In this document: in pieces, positions 44,497 to 60,483 of the stretch
Layout: each line of letters starts with the position of its first letter
Position numbering within the stretch: the first letter of the stretch is position 1
Source of the DNA: an uncultured Candidatus Actinomarina sp.
GTDB lineage: Bacteria > Actinomycetota > Acidimicrobiia > Actinomarinales > Actinomarinaceae
DNA length: 64,000 bases
Assembly: GCA_902521955.1 (NCBI GenBank)
Contig: CABYTP010000004.1
Span: forward strand, 21,969-85,968
Direction: 5' to 3'
Translations under genes and position numbers: made by a program
Notes under the pieces: generated by a model
Told to the model about the DNA's origin: nothing
Databases searched by the model: none
The model's input: the letters and a program-made list of their open reading frames with translations, nothing else

Positions 44497-47375
44497 GACT
44501 CTTCTTTTAAATTACTTATAACAAAAACTAAAGTATCACCAGTTGTCATTACGGCACCTTGAGAAACATTAGTTCCAATAATTTTTCCATTGCAATTCTC
44601 TAAATCATTTTCTTCAAATTCTTCTTTTATAAAAAGTATTACATTGTTCTCTCTCATGAAATCACGAATTAAGTCTTCACCTTCTTCTGGGGTCAAGGTG
44701 CAAGGAGTGATACTTGGAATTGCAGCAGAAAATTTGTTACCCGATACTTCTAAAATTACCTCAGTTCCTTCAGGATACTCATCACCGTTTTCTAAATCTT
44801 GTGATAATACAAGACCTGGAGCTTCTTCAGATTCAACTAAATTAATAGTTGGAAGTATATATGATGAAAAAGCTATTTCTTCTGCATCAAGTATATTTAA
44901 CCCAATCAACTGTGGAATTTCAATAGTTGGAATTTCATAATATTTTTCTATGTCACTTGGATCTAAAGGCCATTCCAATATTGGCAAATCTTTAACTACT
45001 TCAGTCATGAATTCTTTCCACATTGGTGCAGGAACACGACCACCTGAAACATTTCTAAATATTTCACCTTTTATTTCAACATCTGTAAGAGGTAGCTGCT
45101 CTTCAGCAAAACCAATCCAAACTGATGAAGTGTACTGCGGTATAAATCCGATAAACCAGGCTTCTCTAAATCCTTGGTGAGTACCAGTTTTTCCCGCAAT
45201 TTCCCTATCCTCTAAAACAGCTCTAGTCCCAGTTCCATATTGTGCAGCAACTTCTAAAGTTTTTCTTACCGCAGCAGCAGCACCTGGATCAGGAATACTT
45301 ACTCGCGGAGACACAATATGTTTGTAAAGAATATTTCCTTTATCATCTTCAATTTTCTCAATTAAATATGTAGGAGCAAGCACACCATTGGTTGCAAAAG
45401 AAGAATAAGCTGAAGCAATTTCGATTGGCGTAACTGCACCTGCTCCTAAGGTTAGAGATATAACTGGGTCTAACTCAGATTCAATACCTATACGCTTTGC
45501 AGTAGAAGCAAGTTTTTCACCTCCGAGTTCAGAAGCTAATTGAGCAAAGACTGTATTAATAGATCTTCTTGTTGCCTCTTCAAGTGAAATCATTCCTGAT
45601 GTGTCGAGCAATTTAATTGATCTGTTATATTCTGCTTTGTCTTGGCATGGTTTAAATATAAATTGTGTCTCTGAATCCGTATCTATTTGTATTAAGTTTT
45701 GTTGGTACTCAATTAAATCAAGATCGAAAATTATTGTCTGCCCTTCAGGAATCTCTTCACCCTCTTCTAATTCTCTATAGATAATTAAGTTTCCTTCCTC
45801 GTCATACTGACCCAATGCTTTACCAATTTCCATCATTTTTTCTTCATCTGTTTCAAATTCTTCTAGATTTAGACCAAGTGGAAATTGTTTAATAAAATCT
45901 TTATTTTTTAGCTCTTCTATGTGAAAGTCAAAACATTGAAGTTCGATAGATCTATCTTTTGCATCAATTTTATTTAGGTATCTATCTGCTGTTATTGATG
46001 TACCATAGTTTCTCACAACCCACTTTTCTCCAATTCCATCTGGAGCACATGGATAACCACAGTTTATTTCCACCGGACTTCTTGAATCTCTGTAGCTGTA
46101 TAATTTTGCGCCTGATTCTAATGCAGCCAAAAGAGTAATAGGTTTAAACGCTGATCCTGGATTTCTCTTTCCTTGAGTAGCTAGGTTATATTGTTCTTCC
46201 TCAAAAGGTATTCCAGAAGACATTACTTCTATTGCTCCAGTAAAATTATTAATTAGGGTAATAACACCGGTAGGACGAGGTTCATCTGGGTCTTCTTCAT
46301 TGGAATCTGATGGCACCCATGTATTTAAAACTTCATTTGCATGTTGCTGTAATGATAGATTGAGGGTTACATACACTTTTAAACCACCGCCACCAAAGCA
46401 AGTTGTGTCATCAGAAGGACATCCAAAAACTGCTTTTTTTCTATCCTCTTTAGTATTTCCTAAAATAGCAAATTCAGGATCATTTAGTAGTTGTCTTTTT
46501 ACTTCAGCAACAACATGTTCAGCTTGGGCAACAAAATTTTTACTTTCTTTTACATTCAGTGGAGCAAGCTTTGCTGACCTGGCTTGAATATCTACAATAA
46601 AGCCTTCTTTGAGCATTATATTTATTACATCATTTCTTCTTTCCAATACTCGGTCAGGATATTTTCTTGGATTGTAATAAGCGGGGCTTCTGATGATGAC
46701 TACAAGTGTTGCAGCTTCATCTAAAGTTAACTCTTCTACAGTTTTATCAAAATATTCAAAAGCAGCTGACTGAATGCCATATGCACCTGCTCCCCAGTAG
46801 ATAGAGTTAATGTAATATTCTAAAATTTGATCTTTTGTGTATCTTCTTTCTAGCTCAGCTGCAACAACTGCTTCAGCAACCTTCCTTCTAATTGAAATCT
46901 CGTCACCAACAAATGATTGTTTTGCAACCTGGGAAGTAATTGTAGATCCACCACGTGTAACACCTCTTAAGTTATCGAGTACCGCACTAAGAATCGCAAT
47001 AAAATCTACACCCTCATGTTGATAATAATTACTATCTTCTGCTGCTAATAGGGTATTAACAACAAAAGGAGGAACTTCACTTAAAGCAATTGGGTCACGG
47101 TTTAATCCATCATGAAGCTCATCAAGAATCTGATTATCAGAAGTATATATTACGGAAGGTTCCGACAGTGATACAAAATTTAACACCATACCTTCAGCTC
47201 TTGGAAGAAATTTCTCTTCAAGGTCTGTAACGATTTCCATTCCTGACTTAATGGGTAAGAAAACAAAGAAACCAACCCATGCTGCAAACATAAAACTAGA
47301 TAGCAAAAGTAAGAACCCTGCTACATATCGAGAACCAAATCTTGATTTGTTTTCTAAATTATGGATTTGTGCCAT
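44493..47375 (-). CDS. class A penicillin-binding protein (PBP1A-type, GT51 transglycosylase plus transpeptidase) with C-terminal PASTA repeats
   Basis: TM anchor. GT51 motifs EDSNYYQHEGVD and GGSTITSQ. Transpeptidase SxxK (PGSAFKP), plus SxN and KTG (KTGT) motifs. Two PASTA-like repeats at the C-terminus. Confidence 0.85.
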   Translation of the reverse strand: MAQIHNLENKSRFGSRYVAGFLLLLSSFMFAAWVGFFVFLPIKSGMEIVTDLEEKFLPRAEGMVLNFVSLSEPSVIYTSDNQILDELHDGLNRDPIALSEVPPFVVNTLLAAEDSNYYQHEGVDFIAILSAVLDNLRGVTRGGSTITSQVAKQSFVGDEISIRRKVAEAVVAAELERRYTKDQILEYYINSIYWGAGAYGIQSAAFEYFDKTVEELTLDEAATLVVIIRSPAYYNPRKYPDRVLERRNDVINIMLKEGFIVDIQARSAKLAPLNVKESKNFVAQAEHVVAEVKRQLLNDPEFAILGNTKEDRKKAVFGCPSDDTTCFGGGGLKVYVTLNLSLQQHANEVLNTWVPSDSNEEDPDEPRPTGVITLINNFTGAIEVMSSGIPFEEEQYNLATQGKRNPGSAFKPITLLAALESGAKLYSYRDSRSPVEINCGYPCAPDGIGEKWVVRNYGTSITADRYLNKIDAKDRSIELQCFDFHIEELKNKDFIKQFPLGLNLEEFETDEEKMMEIGKALGQYDEEGNLIIYRELEEGEEIPEGQTIIFDLDLIEYQQNLIQIDTDSETQFIFKPCQDKAEYNRSIKLLDTSGMISLEEATRRSINTVFAQLASELGGEKLASTAKRIGIESELDPVISLTLGAGAVTPIEIASAYSSFATNGVLAPTYLIEKIEDDKGNILYKHIVSPRVSIPDPGAAAAVRKTLEVAAQYGTGTRAVLEDREIAGKTGTHQGFREAWFIGFIPQYTSSVWIGFAEEQLPLTDVEIKGEIFRNVSGGRVPAPMWKEFMTEVVKDLPILEWPLDPSDIEKYYEIPTIEIPQLIGLNILDAEEIAFSSYILPTINLVESEEAPGLVLSQDLENGDEYPEGTEVILEVSGNKFSAAIPSITPCTLTPEEGEDLIRDFMRENNVILFIKEEFEENDLENCNGKIIGTNVSQGAVMTTGDTLVFVISNLKEES

Positions 47376-48497: not shown

Positions 48498-49883
48498 TTG
48501 GATTCAAACAACGTAGCTGTTCAAATCTTAAATTATTTATCGAGACCATTAGAAAATGACGAAGATCATTTTCTTTCAGCAAAATTAGCAATTCTAGATA
48601 CTATTGGGTGCATTGTTCAGGCAAGTAGCTATAAAAATGTTCATAGTTTTGCAGTTGGAGAGACCTCAGTAGAGTTATCTAAAAATCCATTTACAACAGT
48701 TAAAAATTTTAATTCTTTAGTAGATAGTACGTGGTACTTAACTGTTTTAACAAGATGGTTTGATTACAACGATACATTTTTAGCAAAAGAATGGGGTCAC
48801 CCATCTGATAACTTTGGATCAATTTATAGTTTTTTTCAAAAAAATAACAGTTATAAATTTGTTGATTTTACAACTGCTTTAACAAAAGCATATGAAATAC
48901 AAGGCTCACTTTGCTTAGGTACTTCATTAAATAAATTGGGTTTCGATCATGTGTTTTTTGTTAAATTAGCATCTGGATCTGTTTTCTCTTATTTACTGAG
49001 TGACGGAAATAGTGACATTGTCAAAAGAACGATTAACAATATTTTGATGGATGGACCTAGTTCAAGAGCATACAGACACTTTCCAAATGTTGGCAAAAGG
49101 AAAAGCTGGGCAGCAGCAGATGCTTCAAAACGAGGGATTGAACTATCACAAATTAGTCGCACAACAGATGAAGTCTACGATACAATCCAAAATCAAGAAG
49201 ACTGGGGTTTTGAAAATATATTTATGAAAAATTCTGAAATAAGTTTCGGAAAAGACTTAGATGATTGGGTTATCCAAAATGTTTTATTTAAAGTTCTTTA
49301 TCCTGCGGAATTTCATGGCCAGTCAGCAGTTGAAGCTGCAACCCAGCTCAGTTCAGAATTTAACCAAAACAGGGATAAACTCGATAAAATAAATATATAC
49401 ACTCATGAGCCGGCTGTCAGAATTATTTCAAATAAAAAAGAGTTAAAAAATGCTTCTGACCGAGATCACAGCTTAGAATATATGGTTGCCGCAGCACTCT
49501 TGTATGGAGATTTAAAATATGAAATGTATGAGGATAATTTTTCAGGCTTAGCTGAGATAAATGAATTACGAAAGATAATTCACGTACAGGAAGAGCCAAA
49601 ATTTACAGAAAACTACTATGAGTTTTCAAAAAGACATATATCAAATTCAATTGAAATTTTATATAATGACGACACCCGATCTGAAAAAATTACAATTGAA
49701 AACCCTATAGGACACCCATCAAGACGAGAGGAAGCAGTTCCTTTATTAGAAGAAAAATTTATAAAAAATGTGGAAAGCACTTTTTCATTAAAAAAGGCAA
49801 ATAAGGTTTGGAATGAAATTTTAAATATGAAAAAAGATGATGATGTTGTTAAATTATTTTCTATTCTTATAGAAGATGAATGA
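48498..49883 (+). CDS. MmgE/PrpD family protein (2-methylcitrate dehydratase-like)
   Basis: 461 aa. The N-terminal ILDTIGC block and overall length match PrpD. Forced TTG start. Confidence 0.7.
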   Translation: MDSNNVAVQILNYLSRPLENDEDHFLSAKLAILDTIGCIVQASSYKNVHSFAVGETSVELSKNPFTTVKNFNSLVDSTWYLTVLTRWFDYNDTFLAKEWGHPSDNFGSIYSFFQKNNSYKFVDFTTALTKAYEIQGSLCLGTSLNKLGFDHVFFVKLASGSVFSYLLSDGNSDIVKRTINNILMDGPSSRAYRHFPNVGKRKSWAAADASKRGIELSQISRTTDEVYDTIQNQEDWGFENIFMKNSEISFGKDLDDWVIQNVLFKVLYPAEFHGQSAVEAATQLSSEFNQNRDKLDKINIYTHEPAVRIISNKKELKNASDRDHSLEYMVAAALLYGDLKYEMYEDNFSGLAEINELRKIIHVQEEPKFTENYYEFSKRHISNSIEILYNDDTRSEKITIENPIGHPSRREEAVPLLEEKFIKNVESTFSLKKANKVWNEILNMKKDDDVVKLFSILIEDE

Positions 49884-50751
49884 AATTTACTTATTAGTAG
49901 GAGGTGAGGCAACAAGACTTCAGCCTCTCTCAACTGGAGTTCCAAAGGCTTTATTAAAAGTACAAGGAGAAAAAATAATTGATTTAATTATTCAGCGTTT
50001 TTCTAAATTAGGAAATTACAAATTTAATTTAATCTGTTCCGATAAGCATGAAAAACAGTGGATTGAATATAAGGATAGTAGTAAAGATGATATTGAATTA
50101 TTATTTGAAAAAACAAAACTTGATACTGCTGGATACATAATCCAAAATCTAAATTCAATGCCGGATTCTTTTTATTGTATGAATGGTGATTTGTTACTAG
50201 ATATCGATCTACAGGAATTGATTATAGAATCAACAACAATTTCTAATTCACTTATTGGATCTATTGAAGTAGAAGACCCAACCAGATACGGAGTGCTTCA
50301 AGTAACTGAAGAAAATAAAGTTGAACGTTTTATTGAAAAGCCTAATGATGATCGTTTTGGGAAGAAAATAAGCTTGGGTCTTTATCACCTATACAAAAAA
50401 GATTTACAAAAAATTGTTTCAGTCCTTGAAATACCATGCTCTTTTGAACGTGATGTTTTTCCAAAACTGGCAGAACAAAATTTACTCAATACATACACAG
50501 CTATAGGAAAAATGATTGATGTTGGAACAATAGAATCTTATATTTCATCTCACCTAAACGGTGATACTAATTGGATTTCACCGAACAATGTTTCTTTAAG
50601 TAGTTCTGCAAATATCAAAAATAGCGTTGTTTTAGATAACTGTATTATTGAAGATGAAGTAATAATTGAGGATTCAATAATTTCAGATGGATCAGTCATT
50701 AAAAGTGGAAGTGTAATTAGAAACCAAATTATAAGGACAAATTTATTATGA
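49876..50751 (+). CDS. sugar-1-phosphate nucleotidyltransferase with a C-terminal left-handed beta-helix (mannose-1-P guanylyltransferase-like)
   Basis: N-terminal LVGGEATRLQPLSTGVPKALL (GG.GTRL motif). C-terminal hexapeptide-like repeats (VVLDNCIIEDEVIIEDSIISDGSVIKSGSVI). Confidence 0.7.
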   Translation: MNEIYLLVGGEATRLQPLSTGVPKALLKVQGEKIIDLIIQRFSKLGNYKFNLICSDKHEKQWIEYKDSSKDDIELLFEKTKLDTAGYIIQNLNSMPDSFYCMNGDLLLDIDLQELIIESTTISNSLIGSIEVEDPTRYGVLQVTEENKVERFIEKPNDDRFGKKISLGLYHLYKKDLQKIVSVLEIPCSFERDVFPKLAEQNLLNTYTAIGKMIDVGTIESYISSHLNGDTNWISPNNVSLSSSANIKNSVVLDNCIIEDEVIIEDSIISDGSVIKSGSVIRNQIIRTNLL

Positions 50752-51671
50752 AAATAATTGTTACAGGCGGTGCAGGATTTATAGGTTCTCACCTTGTGGA
50801 GTCTTTGTTGAAAGATGGACATGAACTTTTAATTTTCGACAACTTTCTAACTGGAAAAAAAGAAAATTTATTATTTGATGGTAATTTCAGATTAGTTGAG
50901 GATAATTTTGGTTCAAAAGATTCACTATCTTTAATTGAAGATTTTGATCCAGAAGTATGCTTCCATTTAGCTGCACAATCTTCAGTAGTTGTATCAGTTC
51001 AAGACCCCCGTCTAGATTTTGAACATAATATCCTACAACCAGTACAACTTCTTAATACCTTAATTAATTCAAATTGTAAAAAGTTTGTATTCACGTCCTC
51101 TGGAGGAACAATTTTTGGAGAACCTAAAAATATACCTACTACAGAGAGTGACTACTCAAATGAACCAGCTTCTCCTTATGGCGTAGCCAAAAAAAAACTA
51201 AATGAAATTATAAAAATAATGACATTAAATACTAATTTAAGTTATTCAATCTTAAATCTATCAAATGTATATGGGCCGAGACAAGATCCTAATGGTGAGG
51301 CGGGAGTGGTATCTATATTTTCAAATAAATATTTAAATGGTGAAAGGCCTGTAATTTATGGTAATGGTGAACAGACGAGAGATTATATATTTGTACAGGA
51401 TGTCATTTCTGCATTGATAAAATCTTCAAAAATTGATGATGATTTATTTTTAAATATTGGGACAGGAATTGAAACTTCTGTAAATGAGTTAGCTGAATCT
51501 TTAAAAACCCAATTTTCATCAAATTTGAATCCAGTTTATCAAGATGCCAGGGAGGGGGAATTGCAACGTAGTGTACTTGATAATACGAAAGCTAGAAAAT
51601 TATTGAATTGGGAACCACAATACGACTTAAATGATGGCATGCTTGAAGTAAGAAATTGGCTTAAGCCCTAG
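50748..51671 (+). CDS. NAD-dependent sugar epimerase/dehydratase (extended short-chain dehydrogenase/reductase, SDR)
   Basis: TGGAGFIGSHL Rossmann motif and catalytic YGVAKK (YxxxK). Confidence 0.8.
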   Translation: MKIIVTGGAGFIGSHLVESLLKDGHELLIFDNFLTGKKENLLFDGNFRLVEDNFGSKDSLSLIEDFDPEVCFHLAAQSSVVVSVQDPRLDFEHNILQPVQLLNTLINSNCKKFVFTSSGGTIFGEPKNIPTTESDYSNEPASPYGVAKKKLNEIIKIMTLNTNLSYSILNLSNVYGPRQDPNGEAGVVSIFSNKYLNGERPVIYGNGEQTRDYIFVQDVISALIKSSKIDDDLFLNIGTGIETSVNELAESLKTQFSSNLNPVYQDAREGELQRSVLDNTKARKLLNWEPQYDLNDGMLEVRNWLKP

Positions 51672-52366
51672 AGAAAAAAATCTTCCTCATCTTCCCTTAT
51701 TAATTCACTTGCATTCTTTTTTGAATCTTCGTAATTCACACCTCTTACAATTGCAATAGGAACATTTAAAGTCTTTTCCATCACGAGCTCTGCAGCACTA
51801 GCAAGTTCGTCTATCACCGCTATTTCAGTTGCATTTAGCTCATTCTCAAAAGTGTCAGTTTTACCTATGTAGCTTGTAATAGGATTTATACCAGATGAGC
51901 CAATTGCAAAATTTACTTGTCCTTTTCTCCATGCTCTTCCAAAAGTGTCAGAAATAATGACAGCAATTTTCTTTCCAGTTAAATTCTCTAATTTCTTTCT
52001 AAAGGAATGTGCTGACTTATTTGGATCTTCTGGAAGAAGTAATACAGTATTTTTCTCAACATTCGATTTGTCAATACCGGCATTAGCACATATAAAGCCA
52101 TGTTTAGTTTTTGCTATTACTAGCTCACCTCTTTTTCTGACTATACGATTGACTTGACTGTTCAGCAAATCTTCAAAACTATGTTCATCAAGATTTCTAG
52201 ACATTCCTTCACTCTTAGAAACAATTTTCTGTGTAACAACGAATATATCTCCGTCCAAAATTTCTCTACTAGATTTCTTAAGAACATCATGAGTTAGATT
52301 TGCAAGGTTGTCTCCTTCTGAAACTTCAGGTAATCCAGATATTGGAATAATTGTTACTTCACCCAT
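51668..52366 (-). CDS. cofE: coenzyme F420-0:L-glutamate ligase (CofE / FbiB N-domain type)
   Basis: GDIFVVTQKIVSKSEGM matches the CofE core motif. 232 aa with no nitroreductase extension. Confidence 0.75.
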   Translation of the reverse strand: MGEVTIIPISGLPEVSEGDNLANLTHDVLKKSSREILDGDIFVVTQKIVSKSEGMSRNLDEHSFEDLLNSQVNRIVRKRGELVIAKTKHGFICANAGIDKSNVEKNTVLLLPEDPNKSAHSFRKKLENLTGKKIAVIISDTFGRAWRKGQVNFAIGSSGINPITSYIGKTDTFENELNATEIAVIDELASAAELVMEKTLNVPIAIVRGVNYEDSKKNASELIREDEEDFFL

Positions 52367-53255
52367 AATTTAAAATTTTTCTTGCAAGATTTTCCGAGTC
52401 TTTTATTGTCTTAAATAAGATATTTTCTTCTACAGTATTTATTTTCTCGTCAGAATCACCAAAATGTACTATATATTTTTTTCCAATATTTTTGTAATAT
52501 TTTTTGATGCCTTCTATGTCGGGACTGAAGCCAATATCTTCAAAGTTTTTTTTCGACGGACCTTTTATTGCATCATTTCCAATAAATGGACTTATGATTG
52601 TTAGATTTTCATGAGAGATTAGTTCCTTTTTTAACTTACTCAGTGAAAGTATTGGCCCTATAGAAAGAAGGGGGTTTGATGGCCCTATAATTACTATGTC
52701 ACTTGATTTAATTTTCTTAATTGTACTTTGGTTAACTTTTGCTACTCGTGAACCTTCATATATAATGTTTTTAATTCTAGGTTTACCTTTTTTTTCAACA
52801 AAATATTCTTGAAAATCAAGTTTTTTATTATTTTTTGTAATTAATTTTGTACTAACTCGGTCATCGCTCATTGGAATAATTTCACAACTTAATTCAAACT
52901 TGTTTTTAATATTTTTTGTTATTTCAGTCAATGTTTTTCCCTGACTTATCATTTGAGATCTATAGAGGTTAGTTGCCAAATCCCTATCTCCTATTTTGAA
53001 ATCTATATCATAAAATTTTCTAAACTCGTTACTAACTGTGAATTTGTCATTTTTCATACCCCATCCAAATTCCCCCTCAATGCCAGCAAGGTTGTATATC
53101 ACAGTATCAATATCAGGTGATAGAAATACTCCATGAATGTGCTCATCATCGCCAGTATTTACAAGTATTGTTAAATCAATGTTTTCTATTTTATTTAGAC
53201 CCTTGGCAAATTTAGCACCACCAACGCCCCCGCTTATGTAAATTACTTTTTTCAA
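52359..53255 (-). CDS. cofD: 2-phospho-L-lactate transferase (CofD / FbiA)
   Basis: N-terminal YISGGVGGAKFAKGL (SGG.GG.K..GL) and CofD-family length. Confidence 0.8.
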   Translation of the reverse strand: MKKVIYISGGVGGAKFAKGLNKIENIDLTILVNTGDDEHIHGVFLSPDIDTVIYNLAGIEGEFGWGMKNDKFTVSNEFRKFYDIDFKIGDRDLATNLYRSQMISQGKTLTEITKNIKNKFELSCEIIPMSDDRVSTKLITKNNKKLDFQEYFVEKKGKPRIKNIIYEGSRVAKVNQSTIKKIKSSDIVIIGPSNPLLSIGPILSLSKLKKELISHENLTIISPFIGNDAIKGPSKKNFEDIGFSPDIEGIKKYYKNIGKKYIVHFGDSDEKINTVEENILFKTIKDSENLARKILNYG

Positions 53256-53300
53256 TTTTAAGAACCTATAAATTAAGACCTTTCAACTAATATCTTAGTA

Positions 53301-53549
53301 ATGATAGATAAGGACATTCTAGATGGTTTAGCTGAACTAGATGAGGCGGACTTAAAGAGAATTAAACTGCTTGTTGATAATAAATTAAACCTCCATAAAA
53401 ATACAAAAGTTTCATATAGGTCAAAAAATATAAAATGTGGGAAAGAGTCTTGTCAAGCATGTCCACACGGCCCTTATTGGTATGCCGAGTGGACTGAAAG
53501 TGGAAAAAGAAAGACAAAGTATTTAGGAAAAACATTAGATGAATCTTAA
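53301..53549 (+). CDS. small zinc-ribbon-like protein (82 aa)
   Basis: C-x4-C-x2-C-P-H-G-P-Y-W-Y (CGKESCQACPHGPYWYAEW), followed by a basic tail. The stop overlaps the ATG of the downstream membrane protein by 11 nt. Confidence 0.4.
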   Translation: MIDKDILDGLAELDEADLKRIKLLVDNKLNLHKNTKVSYRSKNIKCGKESCQACPHGPYWYAEWTESGKRKTKYLGKTLDES

Positions 53550-55722
53550 AGGTTTCTCTAAGACATTATCGAATACGATCTTATTTTCAATATTGTTAGT
53601 TTTTTTAAGAATTGATCTTGTGTTTTCAGATTCACTTCCAACAGGTGGAGACATGGGTGCGCACATAGTACCAACAAAGTTTTTTGTTTCTGAATTAATT
53701 TCAAACCTGAAGATAAGTGGCTGGTCAAATGATTGGTTCGCTGGATATCCTGCTTATTATTTCTACTTTCCATTACCACCAATTATTGTTGCTATTTTAA
53801 GTCCAGTTTTTCCTTTTGGGATTGCATTTAAAATAATGGTTGTTGCTTCACTCGTTTTACTCGTATTTTCAATTCAGAAATTGATTTCTCAGGAGAATAC
53901 AATTAGTTCACATTTAGGTTTTGCGGCTGGATTGTTGTTTTTGCTAACTGAGTCATTTACAATTTTTGGTGGAAATTTGGCCTCATCATTAGCTGGACAA
54001 TATTCATTCACCTATTCTTTAGCTTTTGGAAATCTTTCAATCTACTTTCTCACAAAATCAAATCTAAAAAATTCTTTATATTACAGCTCTCTTTGTATTA
54101 GTTTTTGCATGTTGTCACACATTATTCCTTTTATTATTTTTATACCAATTTATTCTCTTTACTTTTTGAAAAATAGATCAGAAATTCTTAAGAAAATTTC
54201 CTCATTTTTAATATTCTTATTCTTAACTATTCGTTTTTCGATTTCATTATTTACAAATTTGGAATATACAACGAATATGACTTATTCTCCATATAGAAAT
54301 ATAAGTGATTTGATTAAACCTGATATTTTACCGTTAATTTTATTGTCCGTAATATTTTTACTTTCTGGGCAAAGTAAAAAAGTCTTCAAAAATCTATTTT
54401 CTTTAGAAATGTATTTAATCTTATCTTCTTTTCTTTTATTTTTTTATGGACCCGAGGGCGCTTTGTGGAATGGAAGAGTAGTACCCTTTTTTATACTTGG
54501 AACAATACTCTTTGTGTTTAATTTATTAACTCAAAATATATATTTACTTACTTCTAAATTCCAAGGACATATACTTCTTTCATTAATCTATCTTGTAATA
54601 AGTTTTTTTCTACTTTTTAATTACTACAGCAGATGGAATGATAGATATGAAGTAACAGCTTTATTTATAATTTCTCTATTTTTAATTTTGTATTTTTTCA
54701 ATGTGAATAAATTGAATCAATTATTCTCCTTTTTATTCATCACGTTAACAATTTCTACAGTGAGCTTTTTACCACACTGGCTTAATTGGAACTTCACTGG
54801 TTATGAAGGTAAAGCTGAATGGGGCGAGATAACCTCTCTTTATAATAAATTAAACAATCTTTCTTCTGGCAGGATCATGTGGGAACCAAGTCCAGATTTA
54901 AATAAATATGGTACCCCCATGGTTTTAATGACAATACCGATGTTTACCGACCATGAAAGTGTAGAGGGGTTATATTTTGATTCTAGTATTACGACTCCTT
55001 ACCACTTTGTCACAATTTCAGGTTTGGCTGAACGCCCATCTAATCCCGTTGGTGGACTTAGTTATATAAATGGAAATTTTGATAAAGGTGTTCGATACAT
55101 GAAGCATTTAGGTGTTGATTATTTTATTACATACACAGATTCTATTTCAAATAAAGCAACAAATTCCCCCGAGTTAGAATTCTTATTTGCATCATCTCCC
55201 TTCAAAGTATTCAGGGTTAATTCGGATAAAGTAGAATTGGTTACATCAGAATTAATTAATTTCTCACAACCCTCATTTTATGAGCGGATTTCTAATTCAG
55301 TTTTCAAAAACCCACTTGAAGAAAGCTTCTTCACTCTATCAATGAAAGAGTTTCAGAAAGAGGACAACATCAGAATTATTGACAAATCATCAATAGATGA
55401 AATTCAAAACACACTATCTACAGATGAAGCCCAGCTCAACATTACAGATTTCAAACTCAAAAATAACCAATTAACATTTACAACTAATCAGCCAGGCAAA
55501 TTACATTTAATTAAAGTTTCCTATTTCCCGAACTGGACAATTGAAGACGGAGATGGCCCATACAGAATTACTCCATCATTTATGGCAGTAATTCCAAATT
55601 CTAATGATGTAAAACTTACTTTTGAAACAACAGCTTTAGAGCGATTGTTATCTATATTCTCTTACCTATGTTTAACAATTTCACTACTTTTAATAATCTA
55701 TAGAATGAAAAGACATGCTTAA
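53539..55722 (+). CDS. large polytopic membrane protein with a C-terminal extracytoplasmic domain; candidate GT-C-fold glycosyltransferase
   Basis: 727 aa. At least 13 predicted TM helices over about 470 residues, then a soluble domain of about 250 aa. The first loop is acidic/aromatic (TGGDMGAH...WSNDWFAGYPAYYFYFPLPP). Co-located with GtrA-like and GT2 genes. Confidence 0.5.
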   Translation: MNLKGFSKTLSNTILFSILLVFLRIDLVFSDSLPTGGDMGAHIVPTKFFVSELISNLKISGWSNDWFAGYPAYYFYFPLPPIIVAILSPVFPFGIAFKIMVVASLVLLVFSIQKLISQENTISSHLGFAAGLLFLLTESFTIFGGNLASSLAGQYSFTYSLAFGNLSIYFLTKSNLKNSLYYSSLCISFCMLSHIIPFIIFIPIYSLYFLKNRSEILKKISSFLIFLFLTIRFSISLFTNLEYTTNMTYSPYRNISDLIKPDILPLILLSVIFLLSGQSKKVFKNLFSLEMYLILSSFLLFFYGPEGALWNGRVVPFFILGTILFVFNLLTQNIYLLTSKFQGHILLSLIYLVISFFLLFNYYSRWNDRYEVTALFIISLFLILYFFNVNKLNQLFSFLFITLTISTVSFLPHWLNWNFTGYEGKAEWGEITSLYNKLNNLSSGRIMWEPSPDLNKYGTPMVLMTIPMFTDHESVEGLYFDSSITTPYHFVTISGLAERPSNPVGGLSYINGNFDKGVRYMKHLGVDYFITYTDSISNKATNSPELEFLFASSPFKVFRVNSDKVELVTSELINFSQPSFYERISNSVFKNPLEESFFTLSMKEFQKEDNIRIIDKSSIDEIQNTLSTDEAQLNITDFKLKNNQLTFTTNQPGKLHLIKVSYFPNWTIEDGDGPYRITPSFMAVIPNSNDVKLTFETTALERLLSIFSYLCLTISLLLIIYRMKRHA

Positions 55723-56173
55723 AAAAATAATTGATAAGATTTCTAAAGATGGTTCATTCTCAGAACTTTTTAGGACCTATTTAGTAGGAGCTTTTAATTT
55801 ATTGTTTGGACTATTTTTAGTTTATATTTTTCAATTTATTTTGCTAGATTTTATCAGCTTTCCTCTGAGAACTTACCTAACAAACATTTTCCAATTTATT
55901 GTTGGAGTGATTGTTTCTTATTTTCTTTCAAGAAAATTTATATTTAAATTGAAGTTTAATGATGGAAACTATAAAGAATTTTTTAAATATGTATCTATTA
56001 GCTTTATAAATCTTTTCGTACCCTTATTTGTCTGGTTTTTAATCAATTTATGGAACGAAAATTGGCAACAGAATGAATTATATGTTTTAATAATTACAAC
56101 CTTAATCCATGGATCAATACTTCCACTTAAATATTTAATTTATAAGTTTTTTGTGTTTAAAGATTCCCTGTAA
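55715..56173 (+). CDS. GtrA-family small membrane protein (polyprenyl-phosphate-sugar flippase-like)
   Basis: 152 aa with four TM helices and GtrA-like spacing. Start overlaps the GT-C gene stop (ATGCTTAA). Confidence 0.55.
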   Translation: MLKKIIDKISKDGSFSELFRTYLVGAFNLLFGLFLVYIFQFILLDFISFPLRTYLTNIFQFIVGVIVSYFLSRKFIFKLKFNDGNYKEFFKYVSISFINLFVPLFVWFLINLWNENWQQNELYVLIITTLIHGSILPLKYLIYKFFVFKDSL

Positions 56174-56874
56174 AGGACAAATCGAAGATTTAGTAAACTT
56201 TTAATAGTTCTAGGTATTCTTTTATAGATTACAGAAACACTCGGCCTAATCTCATTAATCTTAGCTGGCACCTCTTTAAACTTTTGTCCACTTTTTTCAA
56301 TTCTAATTAAAAGTTCTGTATCGAAAAGATCCTGTGTTGAAATAACTTTTTGAATATATCTATCAACAGATGTTTTTTTTACACCTTTCATTCCGTGAGT
56401 ATCAGATAGATTGGTTCCAAACAAGATTTTTAATATTATTACAAAAGAGCCTGTTGCAATTTTTCTAATTAACCTCCTACCATCTTCAGATTTAGCCAAT
56501 CTTTTTGATGCTATTATTCCAGAAAATTCACTCTCAAGCCGTAGGCATTCTAATAAAAATTTCTCTGAATAATAATCAATATCAAATGAGATAATAATTT
56601 CATTTGTACAAGCTAAAAACCCTCTTTTTAGTGCTTCTCCATAATTTGGTGTATTGTGTTCAATTAGCCTTATCTTTTTATTTGATTTAGCTATTTCAGA
56701 TGCGATATTTTTTGTATTATCAGTTGAACCATTTTCAGATAAAATTATTTCAAATTGAATATTTGTACGCTCACACATAGACATTACATTATTTAAGGAT
56801 TCTTCAAGTATCTCTTCCTCATTATAAATTGGAATTACTATTGAAAAATTATTAAAGGTAAAGTTTGAATCCAT
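56140..56874 (-). CDS. GT2 family glycosyltransferase, polyprenyl-phosphate sugar synthase type (DPM1/GtrB-like), soluble
   Basis: FSIVIPIYNEEE, SENGSTDNT, DxD (FDIDYY). Confidence 0.8.
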   Translation of the reverse strand: MDSNFTFNNFSIVIPIYNEEEILEESLNNVMSMCERTNIQFEIILSENGSTDNTKNIASEIAKSNKKIRLIEHNTPNYGEALKRGFLACTNEIIISFDIDYYSEKFLLECLRLESEFSGIIASKRLAKSEDGRRLIRKIATGSFVIILKILFGTNLSDTHGMKGVKKTSVDRYIQKVISTQDLFDTELLIRIEKSGQKFKEVPAKINEIRPSVSVIYKRIPRTIKSLLNLRFVLYRESLNTKNL

Positions 56875-56895
56875 GAACAGTACAATAATTGAGTA

Positions 56896-58233
56896 ATGGC
56901 AAAAAATAAACTAGATTTAATTTTTAAATCTTACGATATTAGAGGTGTTTATGGTGACACTTTAACTAATGAAATAGCCTTTAAAATTGGATATACATTC
57001 GCAAACTTTGTTGAAGATGATTCAATTTTAATTGGTCATGATGGAAGAATTTCCCATCAGGAAATGTTAGATGCGATATCTTCAGGAATTATTTCTGCTA
57101 AAAAAAATATAATTTATATAGGTCTTGTCCCGACAGATATTGTATATTCATTATCGGGCCTACTTAGTAAACCTGGCCTTGTTATTACAGCCTCCCATAA
57201 CCCAAAGGAATATAACGGTTTAAAATTATGCAATTCAGGTGCCTTACCAATTGGAGAAAATTCAGGATTAATGGAAATAAAAGCCGCAGTTGAAAATTTT
57301 GATAATCATATAGAAATTAATAATTTCATTAAAGTAAATTCCAATTTAACTGAAAAATATTTTGAACACATGAAGACATTAGTTCAACCCGAGATGGTGA
57401 CTAGTACATTAAAATTTGGTATCGACGGCGGCAATGGAGCAATCGGCTCAGTTTTTGATGACTTAGATAAAATATATAATTTTAATTATTCACCCCTATA
57501 TTTAGAAGTTGATGGCAATTTCCCCAACCATCCTGCTGATCCATCTGATAAGAAAAATTTAGAAGACTTAAAAAATTTAGTGATACAAAATAATTTGGAT
57601 TTTGGCGTCGCATTTGATGGAGATGCTGACAGAGCAGTATTCATTGATGATAAGGGAAATGTAATTTCAGGAAGTATGATGACCACCCTGATATCTGATT
57701 ATCTATCAAAAGAAAATAATAATCTTAAAGTTGTACACAATGTAAATGTCTCACCCCATGCATTAAGCGTCTTGAATGATAGAAATATTCAACTTTATAG
57801 ATGTAAAGTAGGACATTCAAATATAAAAAAAATGATGAGAGAAATTGATGCTGATTTCGGTGGAGAGCATAGTGCCCATTTTTATTATAAAGAAAATTTC
57901 TATGCAGATTCAGCTATCTTAACTTTACTTATATTTATGAAAATTATTTCAACAAAAGAAGAGAAAGTAAGCAATGTTTTTGAAAATTATAAGTTTCCAC
58001 CAAGCTCAGGTGAGGTAAATTTTGTAGTTAAGGATGTGGAGGAATCACTAAGAAATGTCGAGAAAGTTTTTGATGTTGATTTTGATTATTTGGATGGACT
58101 TACTTGCTTTACTGAAAACTATTGGTTCAACATTAGGGGTTCAAACACAGAGCCCAAATTAAGGGTCAATGTTGAAGGGAAATCTGAGAAAGTGATTACA
58201 GAAGTTTTAGAGAAAATATCGAGTAACATTTAG
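56896..58233 (+). CDS. phosphomannomutase/phosphoglucomutase (alpha-D-phosphohexomutase)
   Basis: Active-site TASHNPKEYNGLK, metal loop DGDADR, sugar-binding GEHSAH. Confidence 0.85.
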   Translation: MAKNKLDLIFKSYDIRGVYGDTLTNEIAFKIGYTFANFVEDDSILIGHDGRISHQEMLDAISSGIISAKKNIIYIGLVPTDIVYSLSGLLSKPGLVITASHNPKEYNGLKLCNSGALPIGENSGLMEIKAAVENFDNHIEINNFIKVNSNLTEKYFEHMKTLVQPEMVTSTLKFGIDGGNGAIGSVFDDLDKIYNFNYSPLYLEVDGNFPNHPADPSDKKNLEDLKNLVIQNNLDFGVAFDGDADRAVFIDDKGNVISGSMMTTLISDYLSKENNNLKVVHNVNVSPHALSVLNDRNIQLYRCKVGHSNIKKMMREIDADFGGEHSAHFYYKENFYADSAILTLLIFMKIISTKEEKVSNVFENYKFPPSSGEVNFVVKDVEESLRNVEKVFDVDFDYLDGLTCFTENYWFNIRGSNTEPKLRVNVEGKSEKVITEVLEKISSNI

Positions 58234-58240
58234 ATTATAT

Positions 58241-59239
58241 ATGTTAGATCATGTTCTTAATTTAGGTAATCAGCTAAGTTCAGACTTAGTCAAATCTGAC
58301 AATTTTCCTAAATTTAATTATGATCGGATTTTAGTTGTTGGCATGGGTGGATCTGGTGTTGCAGGCGACGTCCTTAAGTTGATTTTAAATAAGTATTCAC
58401 CTTTAGATATTGAAGTTCACAAAACATACAACATTACAAAAAATCATATAGAAAATAAGCCACTTTGTCTATTCATATCTTACTCTGGAAATACTGAAGA
58501 AACAGTAAGTGCATTAGAGGATGCTATAAAAGGAGATCTAGAATGGTGTGTTATTTCTAGTGGCGGGACCTTATTGGAAATGGCCAAAGAAAATAGTAAG
58601 CCTTATATTGAAGTTCCTTCAGGTCTTCAACCTAGAGCAGCCTTTGGATTAATGACTAAAGCAGTAGCTAGCTTCATTCCAGAATCTTTAGGAGTAAATG
58701 TTGAACAAAATTGTAATGATTCTAGTGTTTATTTAAATGAATTACTTGATAATGAATCTGAAAATAAAATTATCAAAAAAGCTAAAGAAATAGCAAACAA
58801 TATAGGTAATAAGACTGTCATTATTTATGGAGGTACTCAATTAAGCTATCTAGCCTCTCAACGATGGAAAACGCAAATTAATGAAAATGCTAAATCTAAA
58901 TCTTATGTTGGATATATGCCAGAAATTCATCACAATGAAATTTTGTCTTGGGAAGCAAATAAAGATGGATCTAAAAATAATTTTCATTTAATTTTCCTAA
59001 GAGACCAAAATGAACATCCAAAAATTAAAAATAGATTTGAGTTCACTAAAGAAATTATTCCCAAAGGAATTGAGATAACTGAAATTGAAAATATTAAGTC
59101 AGACAATTTAATTAAAGAATTATTTCATCTAGTCTTAATAGGTGATTTGATTAGTGTTTTTATGGCTGACAATTTAAATGTTGATCCATACGATATTGAT
59201 TCAATTGAAAATCTAAAAAATATGTTAAAGGAGAAATAG
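58241..59239 (+). CDS. bifunctional phosphoglucose/phosphomannose isomerase (SIS-domain, PGI/PMI family)
   Basis: 332 aa. SIS fold (ILVVGMGGSGVAGD and a second SIS half). Size and layout match the bifunctional PGI/PMI family. Confidence 0.65.
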   Translation: MLDHVLNLGNQLSSDLVKSDNFPKFNYDRILVVGMGGSGVAGDVLKLILNKYSPLDIEVHKTYNITKNHIENKPLCLFISYSGNTEETVSALEDAIKGDLEWCVISSGGTLLEMAKENSKPYIEVPSGLQPRAAFGLMTKAVASFIPESLGVNVEQNCNDSSVYLNELLDNESENKIIKKAKEIANNIGNKTVIIYGGTQLSYLASQRWKTQINENAKSKSYVGYMPEIHHNEILSWEANKDGSKNNFHLIFLRDQNEHPKIKNRFEFTKEIIPKGIEITEIENIKSDNLIKELFHLVLIGDLISVFMADNLNVDPYDIDSIENLKNMLKEK

Positions 59240-60483
59240 TGTCATCAATTAAAGATTCAAACTTAGCTTCTAAGGGTGCTGAAGAAATAAATTGGGCAAC
59301 TAGACAAATGCAAGTCCTCGAAGAAATTAGTAATGAGTTTGCATCATCAAAACCATTAGATGGGTTAAATATTGGGGCATGTATGCATGTTACAAAAGAG
59401 ACTGCAAATTTGATGATGGCTTTAAAATCCGCTGGAGCAAAGGTTGCATTATGTGCATCAAATCCATTATCAACAAATGACTCAGTAGCTGCTTATTTAG
59501 CTGAGAACGATATTGAGGTTCATGCAATAAGAGGGGTTTCAAATGATGAGTTTTTTAAACATTTAAATTTAGTTTTAGATACAAACCCAGATATTACTAT
59601 GGATGATGGTGCAGATCTAGTTACACTTTTACATACGGATAGATCAGATATATCAGTTCTCGGTTCAATGGAAGAAACTACAACTGGTGTAATTCGCTTA
59701 AAGTCAATGGAAAAAAATAACAAACTAAGATTTCCTGTTGTCGCTGTAAACGACTCTGACACTAAACATTTATTTGATAACAGATTTGGAACTGGTCAGA
59801 GCTCAATGGATGGAGTTGTTCGAGCAACTGATTTGTTAATTGCAGGTTTAAACGTTGTAGTTTTTGGATTTGGAGATTGCGGAAAAGGTGTTGCAGAAAG
59901 AGCATATGGAATGGGAGCAAAAGTTACAGTTGTTGAACCAGATTCAGTAAGAGCTTTAGAAGCACTTATGCATGGGTATGAAGTAAAGAACAGCTTAGAA
60001 GCATCCAAGATAGCTGACGTAATTATCACCGTTACTGGAAATAAGCATGTTCTGGACACTCAACATTTTGATCTTATGAAAACAGGTGTAGTGCTTGCAA
60101 ATGCAGGGCATTTTGATGTTGAAATAAACTTGGTTGAATTAAAAAATCAATCAAGTGAAGTTAACAGAGTAAGAGACCATGTTGAAAGCTATATGTATAA
60201 AGAAAAAGAGATTCTTGTATTAGGAGAAGGTAGGCTTGTGAACCTTACTGTAGCAACAGGTCATCCAGCCTCTGTTATGGATATGTCTTTTGCAAATCAA
60301 GCCCTAGCTGCTGAATGGATTAAAGAAAATTATAAAAACTTAGAATCTAAAGTTTACACATTACCAAAATCAGTAGATCAAAAAATAGCAGCAACTAAAT
60401 TAAAGCTAATGGGTGGTCAGTTAGAAATTCTATCTGATGACCAGCTTAACTATTTAGATTCCTGGGAGTTTGGCACAAGTTAA
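59239..60483 (+). CDS. ahcY: adenosylhomocysteinase
   Basis: NAD site GFGDCGKGVAERA and conserved HVTKETANLM. 414 aa. GTG start with SD AAGGAG 8 nt upstream. Confidence 0.9.
   Translation: MSSIKDSNLASKGAEEINWATRQMQVLEEISNEFASSKPLDGLNIGACMHVTKETANLMMALKSAGAKVALCASNPLSTNDSVAAYLAENDIEVHAIRGVSNDEFFKHLNLVLDTNPDITMDDGADLVTLLHTDRSDISVLGSMEETTTGVIRLKSMEKNNKLRFPVVAVNDSDTKHLFDNRFGTGQSSMDGVVRATDLLIAGLNVVVFGFGDCGKGVAERAYGMGAKVTVVEPDSVRALEALMHGYEVKNSLEASKIADVIITVTGNKHVLDTQHFDLMKTGVVLANAGHFDVEINLVELKNQSSEVNRVRDHVESYMYKEKEILVLGEGRLVNLTVATGHPASVMDMSFANQALAAEWIKENYKNLESKVYTLPKSVDQKIAATKLKLMGGQLEILSDDQLNYLDSWEFGTS

Follow-up and report, generated by a model that had tools for sequence, protein, structure and literature searches.

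A probable three-component-type glycosylation system with a PF10131-related transferase in a conserved cell-envelope gene block of Acidimicrobiia

Introduction

Three-component periplasmic glycosylation systems follow a scheme that has been laid out (PMC11127046, PMC13390465). Reviewed examples (PMC11127046, PMC8035078) are GtrA/GtrB/Gtr* in Shigella and Salmonella and CsbB/GtcA/YfhO in Bacillus and Listeria. A GtrA-like protein, Rv3789, also occurs in mycobacteria (PMC11127046).

Here, we analyse a gene cluster in a 64,000-nucleotide stretch of DNA (the window) from Candidatus Actinomarina, a member of the class Acidimicrobiia and not a mycobacterial relative. Candidatus Actinomarina is a very small marine actinobacterium with a streamlined genome of ~1 Mb. 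The polyprenyl-phosphate-sugar systems of mycobacteria comprise Ppm1 with PMT, PimE and MptA, and PpgS (Rv3631) with Rv3779, and their Aft and Emb enzymes are paired with Rv3789. We know of no module like the present one in the fbiA/fbiB–whiB2–pmmA–manA block of M. tuberculosis.

Comparison with described systems

Like the Gtr and CsbB systems, the locus clusters a predicted DPM1/GtrB-type GT2 with a small GtrA protein and a polytopic GT-C bearing an outside domain. It differs from them in that its GT-C is assigned to PF10131 rather than to the GtrII, YfhO or GT136 families, GtrA is dispensable in many relatives of the module, and small Cys-rich proteins precede the GT-C. Its GT2, unlike GtrB and CsbB, lacks TM helices, and the locus is a vertically inherited, class-wide core locus rather than an accessory or phage-borne serotype-converting cassette.

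The mycobacterial systems resemble it in being actinobacterial and in combining a soluble or peripherally tethered GT2 synthase, a GtrA-like protein and wall-acting GT-C transferases; profile searches placed the 727-aa protein in none of the mycobacterial GT-C families at the sequence level. ArnC and ArnT of the lipid A aminoarabinose system are the best solved matches of the GT2 and the GT-C, respectively, but identity is only ~12%, the pathway genes ArnA, ArnB, ArnD, ArnE and ArnF are absent here, and the host is of Gram-positive type without lipid A.

Gene layout

All open reading frames, coordinates, strands and overlaps of the initial annotation are real, as judged from the ORF list and the sequence of the window (Table 1). 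The module genes are genuine rather than chance ORFs; each has many conserved homologues.

Table 1. Genes of the locus, in window coordinates, with profile matches
Feature	Coordinates	Strand	Profile evidence
NTP_transferase with short left-handed beta-helix tail	49876-50751	+	PF00483 3.1e-28
SDR epimerase/dehydratase, GalE-like	50748-51671	+	Pfam Epimerase 6.3e-47
cofE	51668-52366	-	passes equivalog cut-off
cofD	52359-53255	-	passes equivalog cut-off
DUF6788 mini-protein, 82 aa	53301-53549	+	22.6 bits, cut-off 27.2
GT-C-fold membrane protein, 727 aa	53539-55722	+	no Pfam/NCBIfam match
GtrA-family protein, 152 aa	55715-56173	+	GtrA_DPMS_TM 38.5 bits, cut-off 26.1
Soluble GT2, 244 aa	56140-56874	-	Glycos_transf_2 8.6e-22
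Phosphomannomutase/phosphoglucomutase (PMM)	56896-58233	+	four PGM_PMM domains
Bifunctional PGI/PMI (SIS + bact-PGI_C)	58241-59239	+	TIGR02128 252.7, cut-off 213.9

The ATG of the GT-C gene (53539) lies 8 nt ahead of the TAA of the mini-protein gene (53547-53549), giving an 11-nt overlap, and the GT-C and GtrA genes overlap at 55715-55722 (read from the sequence as ATGCTTAA). The convergent GtrA and GT2 genes share 34 nt (56140-56173), and GT2 and PMM diverge from a 21-bp spacer. Further overlaps in the window join the prpD-like and NTP-transferase genes (8 nt), NTP-transferase and SDR (4 nt), the convergent SDR and cofE (4 nt), cofE and cofD (8 nt), and PGI and sahH (1 nt). Since intergenic spacers in Actinomarinales genomes have a median of 2 bp (PMC7771536), overlapping genes are normal for this streamlined genome and therefore carry little information; the translational overlap of GT-C and GtrA emphasized previously exists but says little about linkage.

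The 727-aa protein adopts a predicted GT-C fold

An AF2 model built from a 46-sequence alignment (pLDDT 88, pTM 0.90) shows 13 TM helices, a soluble domain spanning residues ~421-697, assigned to the extracytoplasmic side, and an extra C-terminal TM helix (699-726). The best 22 Foldseek matches of the model in the PDB are all GT-C enzymes, led by ArnT (E 6e-8, TM-score 0.53 on the target), and the structural neighbours include AftA, AftD, AftB, PimE and Emb. No transporter structure reached a significant score in these structure searches. The fold thus agrees with the earlier proposal of a GT-C transferase rather than a transporter.

Although Pfam and NCBIfam profiles gave no direct match to the window protein, 24 of its 46 relatives match PF10131, and the full-length relative P0130 scores 83.6 bits with that model. 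The window GT-C and its nearest relatives (P0122, P0124 and P0126) fall below detection by the PF10131 model, which begins past TM1 and leaves out the invariant Asp38 loop. PF10131 members include full-length relatives of the window GT-C with 25-30% identity that score above the gathering threshold, and they share its architecture of a TM domain and part of the soluble domain. Judged from the membership of these relatives, the 727-aa protein represents a divergent branch within PF10131 (PTPS_related), which sits in the Pfam GT-C clan with its function unknown (PMC7801869). The GT-C family put forward as novel is therefore uncharacterized, as claimed, but already catalogued.

Asp38, His194 and Glu449 are invariant among 46 diverse sequences, His42, Lys98, Asn146 and Arg313 are at least 93% conserved, and Asn311 is also strongly conserved; these polar positions lie in outside loops or at the membrane boundary. 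Asp38 belongs to a PTGGDMGAH motif in the first outside loop, just past TM1. GT-C enzymes carry a catalytic acid just after TM1, and Asp38 is a candidate catalytic residue.

The GT2 resembles polyprenyl-phosphate sugar synthases

The GT2 motifs ENGSxD, FDIDY (DxD), SDTHGMK and LFDTE are invariant in the alignment, and a hydropathy scan revealed no TM helices and a single interface-type hydrophobic stretch. Its long-coverage NCBIfam matches are Pol-P/Dol-P sugar transferases, all under cut-off. The best PDB matches of the family profile are ArnC (1.5e-19, residues 4-172), GtrB (1.2e-14) and DPMS (1e-9), and the GT2 shows no greater similarity to Dol-P-Man synthase than to either ArnC or GtrB. 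GT2s encoded beside other PF10131 genes have its DxD, D-x-x-G-x-K and F-D-x-E motifs in common, and one such GT2 (L086) carries a C-terminal TM pair of GtrB/ArnC type. We predict that the GT2 is a polyprenyl-phosphate sugar synthase of the DPM1/GtrB/ArnC type, and its nearest matches, together with the pairing with PF10131-type GT-Cs in distant lineages, uphold the earlier DPM1/GtrB-type assignment.

GtrA and the small Cys-rich proteins

The GtrA protein has four TM helices, scores above the Pfam cut-off and is proposed to be a flippase or helper for a lipid-linked sugar. Directly after the GT-C, a homologue is encoded in all 23 Actinomarinales loci and in 18 of 50 loci from other Acidimicrobiia; it is facultative, being absent within 10 kb in the remaining 32/50.

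The 82-aa mini-protein is predicted to be cytoplasmic and consists of an N-terminal helix followed by C46-x4-C51-x2-C54-P-H56-GPYWY (Cys3His), invariant in the alignment. PF20586 is carried by all 120 of its relatives listed, out of 1304 matches, and searches of the PDB, PHROG and the literature yielded no match. Its gene precedes that of the GT-C in the same orientation in 23/23 Actinomarinales and 45/54 other loci. Most other Acidimicrobiia encode a distinct ribbon of 58 aa (CxxC...CxxC) between the DUF6788 protein and the GT-C. What was initially termed a zinc-ribbon partner is a syntenic Cys3His protein (DUF6788) and no more than a candidate partner of the GT-C, with the other ribbon intervening elsewhere.

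Sugar-supply genes

The best NCBIfam model of the nucleotidyltransferase, an Rv3264c-type Man-1-P guanylyltransferase, reaches 114.7 bits, with its cut-off at 440; the enzyme is possibly a GDP-mannose pyrophosphorylase, and its gene is syntenic in Actinomarinales and two other loci only. The SDR best matches GalE (161 bits, cut-off 262), and its tie to the module is uncertain. PMM reaches 398.8 bits with NF007088, under the cut-off of 618, and is encoded less than 3 kb from the GT-C in all 23 Actinomarinales loci and 39 of 42 others (62/65 in total); the PGI/PMI gene is syntenic in most loci. Both are possible supply enzymes, in a neighbourhood that we take to be ancestral actinobacterial synteny (M. 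tuberculosis Rv3255c-Rv3264c region). Neither the nucleotidyltransferase nor the GT2 reached a specificity-defining NCBIfam model. The genes of the mannose module proposed earlier (PGI/PMI, PMM and nucleotidyltransferase) are indeed there, but mannose is only a candidate sugar, suggested by gene neighbourhood.

Conservation across genomes

Throughout Acidimicrobiia, the genes keep the order Zn-protein, GT-C, (GtrA), GT2, PMM. All 23 Actinomarinales loci and 42 of 50 others have the GT2 gene next to the GT-C gene in convergent orientation; of the 73 loci with enough flank, 65 have GT2 beside the GT-C and 41 have GtrA, the PMM total being taken over 65 loci. The GT-C occurs in at least 551 species-level genomes, and family members are also found in other Actinomycetota and Woesearchaeota. 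Co-occurrence thus extends beyond this genome, with a facultative GtrA, and the label "lineage-specific" proved too narrow: the module belongs to the cofD/cofE...pmm...sahH block class-wide and has been passed on vertically as a core trait of Acidimicrobiia, not a narrow lineage novelty. In a freshwater Ilumatobacteraceae-like lineage, the GT-C lies beside PMM, with no GT2, no GtrA and neither of the small Zn proteins nearby.

Among distant relatives, GT-C and small GT2 genes are paired in 4/6 family contexts, including an archaeon (Woesearchaeota; L084), in which the GT2 lies downstream and overlaps the GT-C; the GT2 is divergent in L085 and L086 and 1.5 kb away in L087. The other two of the six have no GT2 nearby.

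A model of the glycosylation system

The class-wide gene order and the GT-C–GT2 pairs of distant relatives point to a three-component-type polyprenyl-phosphate-sugar system. We consider it likely that the cluster is an extracytoplasmic glycosylation system of this type within a conserved cell-envelope block. The analysis establishes which genes are present and how they are linked, their family relationships, the GT-C fold and the conserved residues, whereas we infer the enzymatic activities, the lipid carrier, the sugar, the acceptor and any part played by the DUF6788 mini-protein. A sugar would be loaded onto a membrane lipid, moved across the membrane and attached to an envelope target; the overall scheme is well known, but the final transferase comes from an uncharacterized family. 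The soluble, peripherally acting GT2 would transfer one sugar from a nucleotide sugar to polyprenyl phosphate at the inner membrane face, with D98/D100 as its putative DxD and GDP-mannose perhaps supplied by the neighbouring PGI/PMI, PMM and nucleotidyltransferase. The four-TM GtrA may help the lipid-linked sugar to the outer face. There, the membrane domain of the GT-C would hold the polyprenyl-phosphate sugar (candidate phosphate ligands, K98 and R313) and pass the sugar, with D38 and H42 of the first outside loop as candidate catalytic residues, to a wall glycopolymer, lipoglycan or protein probably held by the soluble domain (421-697).

Several observations count against this model: the window protein does not reach PF10131, of which no member is biochemically characterized, the GT2 has none of the TM helices seen in GtrB, CsbB and ArnC, GtrA is absent within 10 kb from 32/50 non-Actinomarinales loci, the Ilumatobacteraceae-like lineage has neither GT2, GtrA nor the small Zn proteins nearby, and mannose is suggested only by a neighbourhood that is itself ancestral synteny. 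The GT2 might instead serve another pathway, for example one that makes a cytoplasmic glycolipid or acts on a soluble acceptor, with the donor synthase of the GT-C encoded elsewhere and the neighbourhood reflecting inherited synteny only. Indeed, the block of cofE/cofD, PMM, Trm112p, PGI_C, SahH and SecA keeps its synteny throughout Acidimicrobiia whatever the function of its genes, the overlaps of this genome are uninformative, and one lineage and two of six distant members have the GT-C without a nearby GT2. An inherited actinobacterial block does not, however, explain a pairing that recurs in unrelated contexts and orientations (L084-L087), and the GT2 subfamily carries polyprenyl-phosphate glycosyltransferase motifs; we regard this alternative as unlikely.

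We judge it quite unlikely that the GT-C acts like an oligosaccharyltransferase (OST), ligase or polymerase, moving a pre-assembled glycan, built or primed by the GT2, from a polyprenyl-pyrophosphate carrier to protein or wall. A conserved PxWxxWN(Y/F)xGYE motif right behind TM13, where OSTs have WWDYG, and weak GT2 matches to archaeal AglJ/Dol-P-hexose transferase models agree with such a role. Yet Tyr or Phe stands in place of the WWDYG Asp, Pfam STT3 matches 0/46 family members, and the cluster encodes neither other glycan-assembly glycosyltransferases nor a Wzx-type flippase. As no activity is known for PF10131, the 727-aa protein could also be a transporter, scaffold or pseudo-enzyme retaining a GT-C-like fold, which we find highly improbable: Asp38 is invariant, the seven further polar residues listed above are strongly conserved, transporter structures gave no significant match, and the gene is kept in 1-Mb streamlined genomes.

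A membrane protein of the PF10131 kind with a predicted GT-C fold

Full-length homology to PF10131 members, together with its predicted fold, places the 727-aa membrane protein among GT-C glycosyltransferases of the PF10131 kind. Searched directly, the window protein had no match in NCBIfam or, even at E ≤ 10, in Pfam, and this includes the PF10131 (PTPS_related) model, whose gathering score is 26.4 bits. Among 46 diverse GT-C relatives, by comparison, 24 match PF10131 (best E-value 1.1e-36), and the full-length relative P0130 matches both the window-family profile (1.2e-95, residues 12–722) and PF10131 (83.6 bits); neither the window protein nor its nearest neighbors are detected by PF10131. 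A profile of the close relatives, run against 1.84 billion representatives, delineated a large family of 2813 clusters (50% identity, E ≤ 0.001). The GT-C clan CL0111 includes PF10131, with its function given as unknown (PMC7801869), and our search of the literature on PF10131 found no assigned activity and nothing beyond this clan listing.

Among genomes, the 727-aa gene is matched best by a single-cell genome of Candidatus Actinomarina (93% amino-acid identity). Its close relatives all belong to Actinomarina/OCS155 genomes, and in marine metagenomes, Tara included, the protein is abundant. As the host is a streamlined marine member of the Acidimicrobiia, any comparison with mycobacteria crosses classes.

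An AlphaFold model computed from the 46-sequence diverse alignment reached a pLDDT of 88 and a pTM of 0.90; a first model, based on a shallow alignment of 25 close relatives, had a pLDDT of 53 and was discarded. The retained model predicts 13 TM helices, with a mixed α/β domain at approximately residues 421–697 and the last TM helix at 699–726, forming a polytopic membrane domain with the GT-C fold that characterizes clan CL0111. The best 22 Foldseek matches in the PDB are all GT-C enzymes, including ArnT (6e-8), AftD, PglB, STT3, AglB, AftA, ALG9 and EmbA, while sequence searches of the PDB with the single sequence or a profile returned no match. Transporter structures were not significant in the Foldseek comparison, and we reject a transporter on the strength of the modeled fold. 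The combination of a Pfam PMT/PMT_2 match and a loop-1 Asp–Glu pair that marks protein O-mannosyltransferases (PMT, GT39) was not found in the protein, and Pfam YfhO is matched by one of the 46 relatives (E-value 0.0026) and not by the window protein.

Residues D38, H194 and E449 are invariant across the 46 sequences, and conservation is at least 93% at H42, K98, N146, N311 and R313. D38 sits in a (T/P)TGGDxGAH motif just after TM1 (residues 6–22). The basic N-terminus and basic C-terminal tail suggest an N-in topology, which would make the D38 loop the first outside loop; D38 would then be the conserved acidic residue that clan CL0111 enzymes have in their first extracytoplasmic loop. The catalytic acid of GT-C enzymes such as ArnT, PglB and PMT is located in the first outside loop.

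The adjoining GT2 and GtrA proteins

By homology and motifs, the 244-aa GT2 appears to be of the polyprenyl-phosphate sugar synthase type. A profile of this protein and its orthologues matches ArnC best in the PDB (1.5e-19, residues 4–172), followed by GtrB (1.2e-14) and an archaeal Dol-P-Man synthase (1e-9), and it also matches generic GT2 N-termini such as that of chondroitin synthase. Its long-coverage NCBIfam matches are Dol-P/Pol-P sugar transferases, all below cut-off. The motifs ENGSxD, FDIDY (DxD), SDTHGMK and LFDTE are invariant, and an F-D-x-E motif is present. The GT2 has no TM helices of its own and no C-terminal TM segment, and we therefore liken it to Ppm1 and human DPM1, which are TM-less catalytic subunits, and not to GtrB. 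The GT-C protein may use a polyprenyl-phosphate-linked sugar donor, as suggested by the adjoining GT2 with its resemblance to polyprenyl-phosphate glycosyltransferases. The GtrA-family protein encoded with the GT2 and the GT-C protein, from a gene overlapping that of the latter, contains four hydrophobic segments, and its Pfam score is 38.5 bits (cut-off 26.1).

Organization of the region

The ORFs that the initial annotation had listed for the module were recovered identically (see table), as were its three overlaps (mini-protein/GT-C, GT-C/GtrA and GtrA/GT2). Overlap alone is not a sign of functional coupling, since functionally unrelated neighbors overlap in the window as well (for example, prpD-like/nucleotidyltransferase and SDR/cofE) and in Actinomarinales genomes the intergenic spacer has a median of 2 bp at a coding density of 97% (PMC7771536); we discarded it as evidence on these grounds.

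Genes of the module region and its flanks, as assigned by profile search (window coordinates)
Feature	Position	Strand	Remarks
Nucleotidyltransferase	49876–50751		Short β-helix tail
SDR	50748–51671		GalE-like
cofE and cofD		−	
82-aa protein	53301–53549	+	Weak DUF6788 match
727-aa protein (GT-C)	53539–55722	+	No Pfam/NCBIfam match
GtrA-family protein	55715–56173	+	Above Pfam cut-off
244-aa GT2	56140–56874	−	
PMM/PGM	56896–58233		Four domains
Bifunctional PGI/PMI	58241–59239		Passes TIGR02128
sahH, then secA	3′ of PGI/PMI gene		

The module region has a GC content of approximately 27–33% that runs on into its flanks, and from this continuity, together with the class-wide synteny of the locus, we reject a horizontal island. 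No paralogues of the module genes occur within the window. Consensus scans of positions 49500–59500 yielded promoters at no more than shuffled expectation and no intrinsic terminators. Only 21 bp separate the start codons of the divergent GT2 and PMM genes (56874–56896), whose promoters must therefore be shared or lie within coding sequence.

Conservation across the Acidimicrobiia

In 80 species-level genome loci that carry the GT-C gene, we used tblastn and our own HMM to count neighbors wherever enough flanking sequence was available. The GT2 gene lies next to that of the GT-C protein in 65 of 73 loci, and the pair is kept even in 1-Mb genomes.

Neighbors of the GT-C gene in loci with sufficient flanking sequence
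Arrangement	Actinomarinales	Other Acidimicrobiia
GT2 adjacent and convergent	23/23	42/50
GtrA directly 3′ of GT-C	23/23	18/50
PMM within 3 kb	23/23	39/42
DUF6788 gene upstream, same strand	23/23	45/54

On a 2.6-Mb Acidimicrobiia contig that was annotated independently, the gene order is LCP, UDP-sugar dehydrogenase, cofE, cofD, a 918-aa protein, DUF5719, DUF6788, small ORFs, GT-C, GT2, PMM, Trm112p, PGI_C, SahH and SecA; a second contig with the same DUF6788 protein, L082, adds DUF3499 between DUF5719 and DUF6788. Because the order is conserved across Acidimicrobiia loci, we conclude that the module is an integral, vertically inherited part of a class-wide envelope block, of which Actinomarina has a compacted version. 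The description of the module as lineage-specific is too narrow for a locus that is syntenic across the class.

In the contigs L081 and L082, approximately 5 kb separate cofD from DUF6788, compared with a 45-bp spacer in Actinomarina (53255–53301). This interval encodes the 918-aa protein (no Pfam match), DUF5719 and a 121-aa membrane protein, with DUF3499 in L082; given the 45 bp left in Actinomarina, the block has been deleted or moved as the genome was streamlined. Six related, Ilumatobacteraceae-like freshwater loci (L036, L051, L053, L054, L069 and L075) have the GT-C gene directly upstream of PMM, and none of them has GT2, GtrA, DUF6788 or the 58-aa zinc ribbon of other Acidimicrobiia within 10 kb. 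In L051 the GT-C gene is preceded instead by a DUF3499-like ORF and by an ORF for a 242-aa membrane protein.

Small cysteine-rich proteins

The 82-aa mini-protein, whose gene precedes that of the GT-C protein, consists of an N-terminal helix followed by C46, C51, C54 and H56, which are invariant in the alignment within a CGKxxCxxCPHGPYWY motif; its CPHGPYWY part is invariant throughout. The site is thus Cys3His and not a classical four-Cys ribbon. The window protein scores 22.6 bits against PF20586 (DUF6788), below the cut-off of 27.2, and all 120 homologues among the matches listed for its orthologue in locus L027 carry PF20586. These relatives come from Acidimicrobiia or Actinomycetota and are named solely as hypothetical proteins, and the mini-protein has no PDB relative, PHROG family or literature match.

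A second small protein, a CxxC...CxxC zinc ribbon of 55–63 aa, is encoded between DUF6788 and GT-C in 45 of 57 non-Actinomarinales loci (for example, L081 11052–11228 and L027 9756–9929) and is absent from the window and from every Actinomarinales locus. The stop of its gene overlaps the GT-C start. Its consensus is MxCPxC..DVIEI..LPDG..V.FF.CH.CEEKWW, and Pfam returns weak generic zinc-ribbon matches only (TFIIS, FdhE_central). DUF3499, which precedes DUF6788, is a third Cys-rich protein. These small proteins could act on the TM-less GT2 as tethers or regulators, or else could belong to a neighboring conserved regulatory block.

GT-C/GT2 pairs outside the class

The conserved neighborhood could reflect inheritance rather than function; GT-C/GT2 pairs in an archaeon and at other distant loci weaken this reading. 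Six distant family members outside the Acidimicrobiia were inspected, and GT-C and GT2 are paired in four of these contexts. In the Woesearchaeota locus L084 (8001–10714), a 673-aa PF10131 gene is followed by an overlapping gene for a 231-aa GT2, whose full-length identity with the window GT2 is 30%. At two more loci the GT2 gene is divergently adjacent, one of these proteins having a GtrB/ArnC-type C-terminal TM pair; at another, the GT2 lies 1.5 kb off and PMM is also present. No GT2 was found nearby in the remaining two loci. That the pair recurs in differing orientations and gene contexts speaks for a functional link between GT-C and GT2 and against an inherited neighborhood.

Also in L084, a DUF2079 protein, from what we take to be another family of the GT-C clan, and a second GT2 are encoded a few kb upstream of the PF10131 gene, and a 1770-aa Ig-repeat protein, which could be a candidate acceptor, is encoded downstream of the pair.

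A putative lipid-linked glycosylation system

The best-supported reading of the cluster is a system of the three-component type, which the literature defines as a GT-A/GT2 synthase of a lipid-linked sugar acting with a flippase of the GtrA type and a transferase of the GT-C type (PMC11127046; PMC13390465). Alongside the homology, motifs, linkage and fold observed here, we infer its activities, carrier lipid, sugar and acceptor: the GT2 would charge polyprenyl phosphate, the GtrA protein would assist translocation and the GT-C protein would transfer the sugar outside the membrane. The synthase, flippase and GT-C scheme is already established, and the cluster extends it without adding a new one.

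An oligosaccharyltransferase-like enzyme that transfers a pre-assembled glycan would fit the Foldseek matches to AglB, STT3 and PglB, which are similarities at the fold level only, the match to the AglB C-terminal domain and a WN(Y/F)xGYE motif at the WWDYG position. However, this motif lacks the WWDYG Asp, none of the 46 family members matches Pfam STT3, and Pmt4, AftA and AftD, which use monophosphate-linked sugars, outscore the oligosaccharyltransferases in structure comparison; we reject membership in STT3/AglB/PglB. A protein that keeps a GT-C-like fold but no activity is likewise made less probable by the invariant polar residues.

Mannose is a plausible sugar, since PMM, PGI/PMI and a ManC-like nucleotidyltransferase are neighbors, and we put it forward tentatively, at somewhat less than even odds. 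Three observations weaken the assignment: against the equivalog models for GDP-mannose enzymes, PGI/PMI passes TIGR02128, but PMM (398.8 versus 618) and the nucleotidyltransferase (114.7 versus 440) fall well below cut-off; the GT2 is no closer to Dol-P-Man synthase than to ArnC/GtrB; and the pmm/PGI–PMI neighborhood is ancestral in Actinobacteria (Rv3255c–Rv3264c of M. tuberculosis).

The three-component system proposed here would work similarly to the Gtr and CsbB/GtcA/YfhO systems and to mycobacterial Pol-P-sugar/GT-C pathways. It differs from them in that its GT-C protein belongs to an uncharacterised family, its synthase has no TM helices, GtrA is optional among its relatives and the locus is core and class-wide instead of an accessory cassette.

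A broader reading, which we consider unlikely as a whole, is that a PF10131-type GT-C protein and a dedicated soluble GT2 form the core envelope glycosyltransferase pair of the Acidimicrobiia. Such a pair might make a major component of the wall or lipoglycan or attach it, or might take the place of PMT-type enzymes in general protein glycosylation, and the DUF6788 Cys3His protein and the 58-aa ribbon might be cytoplasmic tethers or regulators of the synthase, by analogy with DPM2/DPM3 and Ppm2. If true, it would define a new CAZy GT family common to Actinomycetota and DPANN archaea.

Candidatus Actinomarina ranks among the most abundant actinobacteria of the sea. A glycosylation module that is core and class-wide offers a concrete handle on the envelope of the Acidimicrobiia, whose aquatic members have a wall composition stated to be unknown (PMC7771536). 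With a single activity assigned in PF10131, thousands of 'hypothetical' membrane proteins would gain an annotation, and a new glycosyltransferase family would probably be established.

Other features of the window

Two large wall enzymes are encoded on the minus strand just upstream of the module region: a 989-aa SpoIID-domain protein with four PG_binding_1 repeats (38528–41497) and a 960-aa class A PBP with a PASTA domain (44493–47375). Directly 3′ of the 2-oxoacid dehydrogenase E3, E1 and E2 genes, a 548-aa ORF (34952–36598, plus strand) combines an LplA-B_cat lipoyl(octanoyl) transferase domain with a radical-SAM lipoyl synthase domain and is an apparent LipB–LipA fusion.
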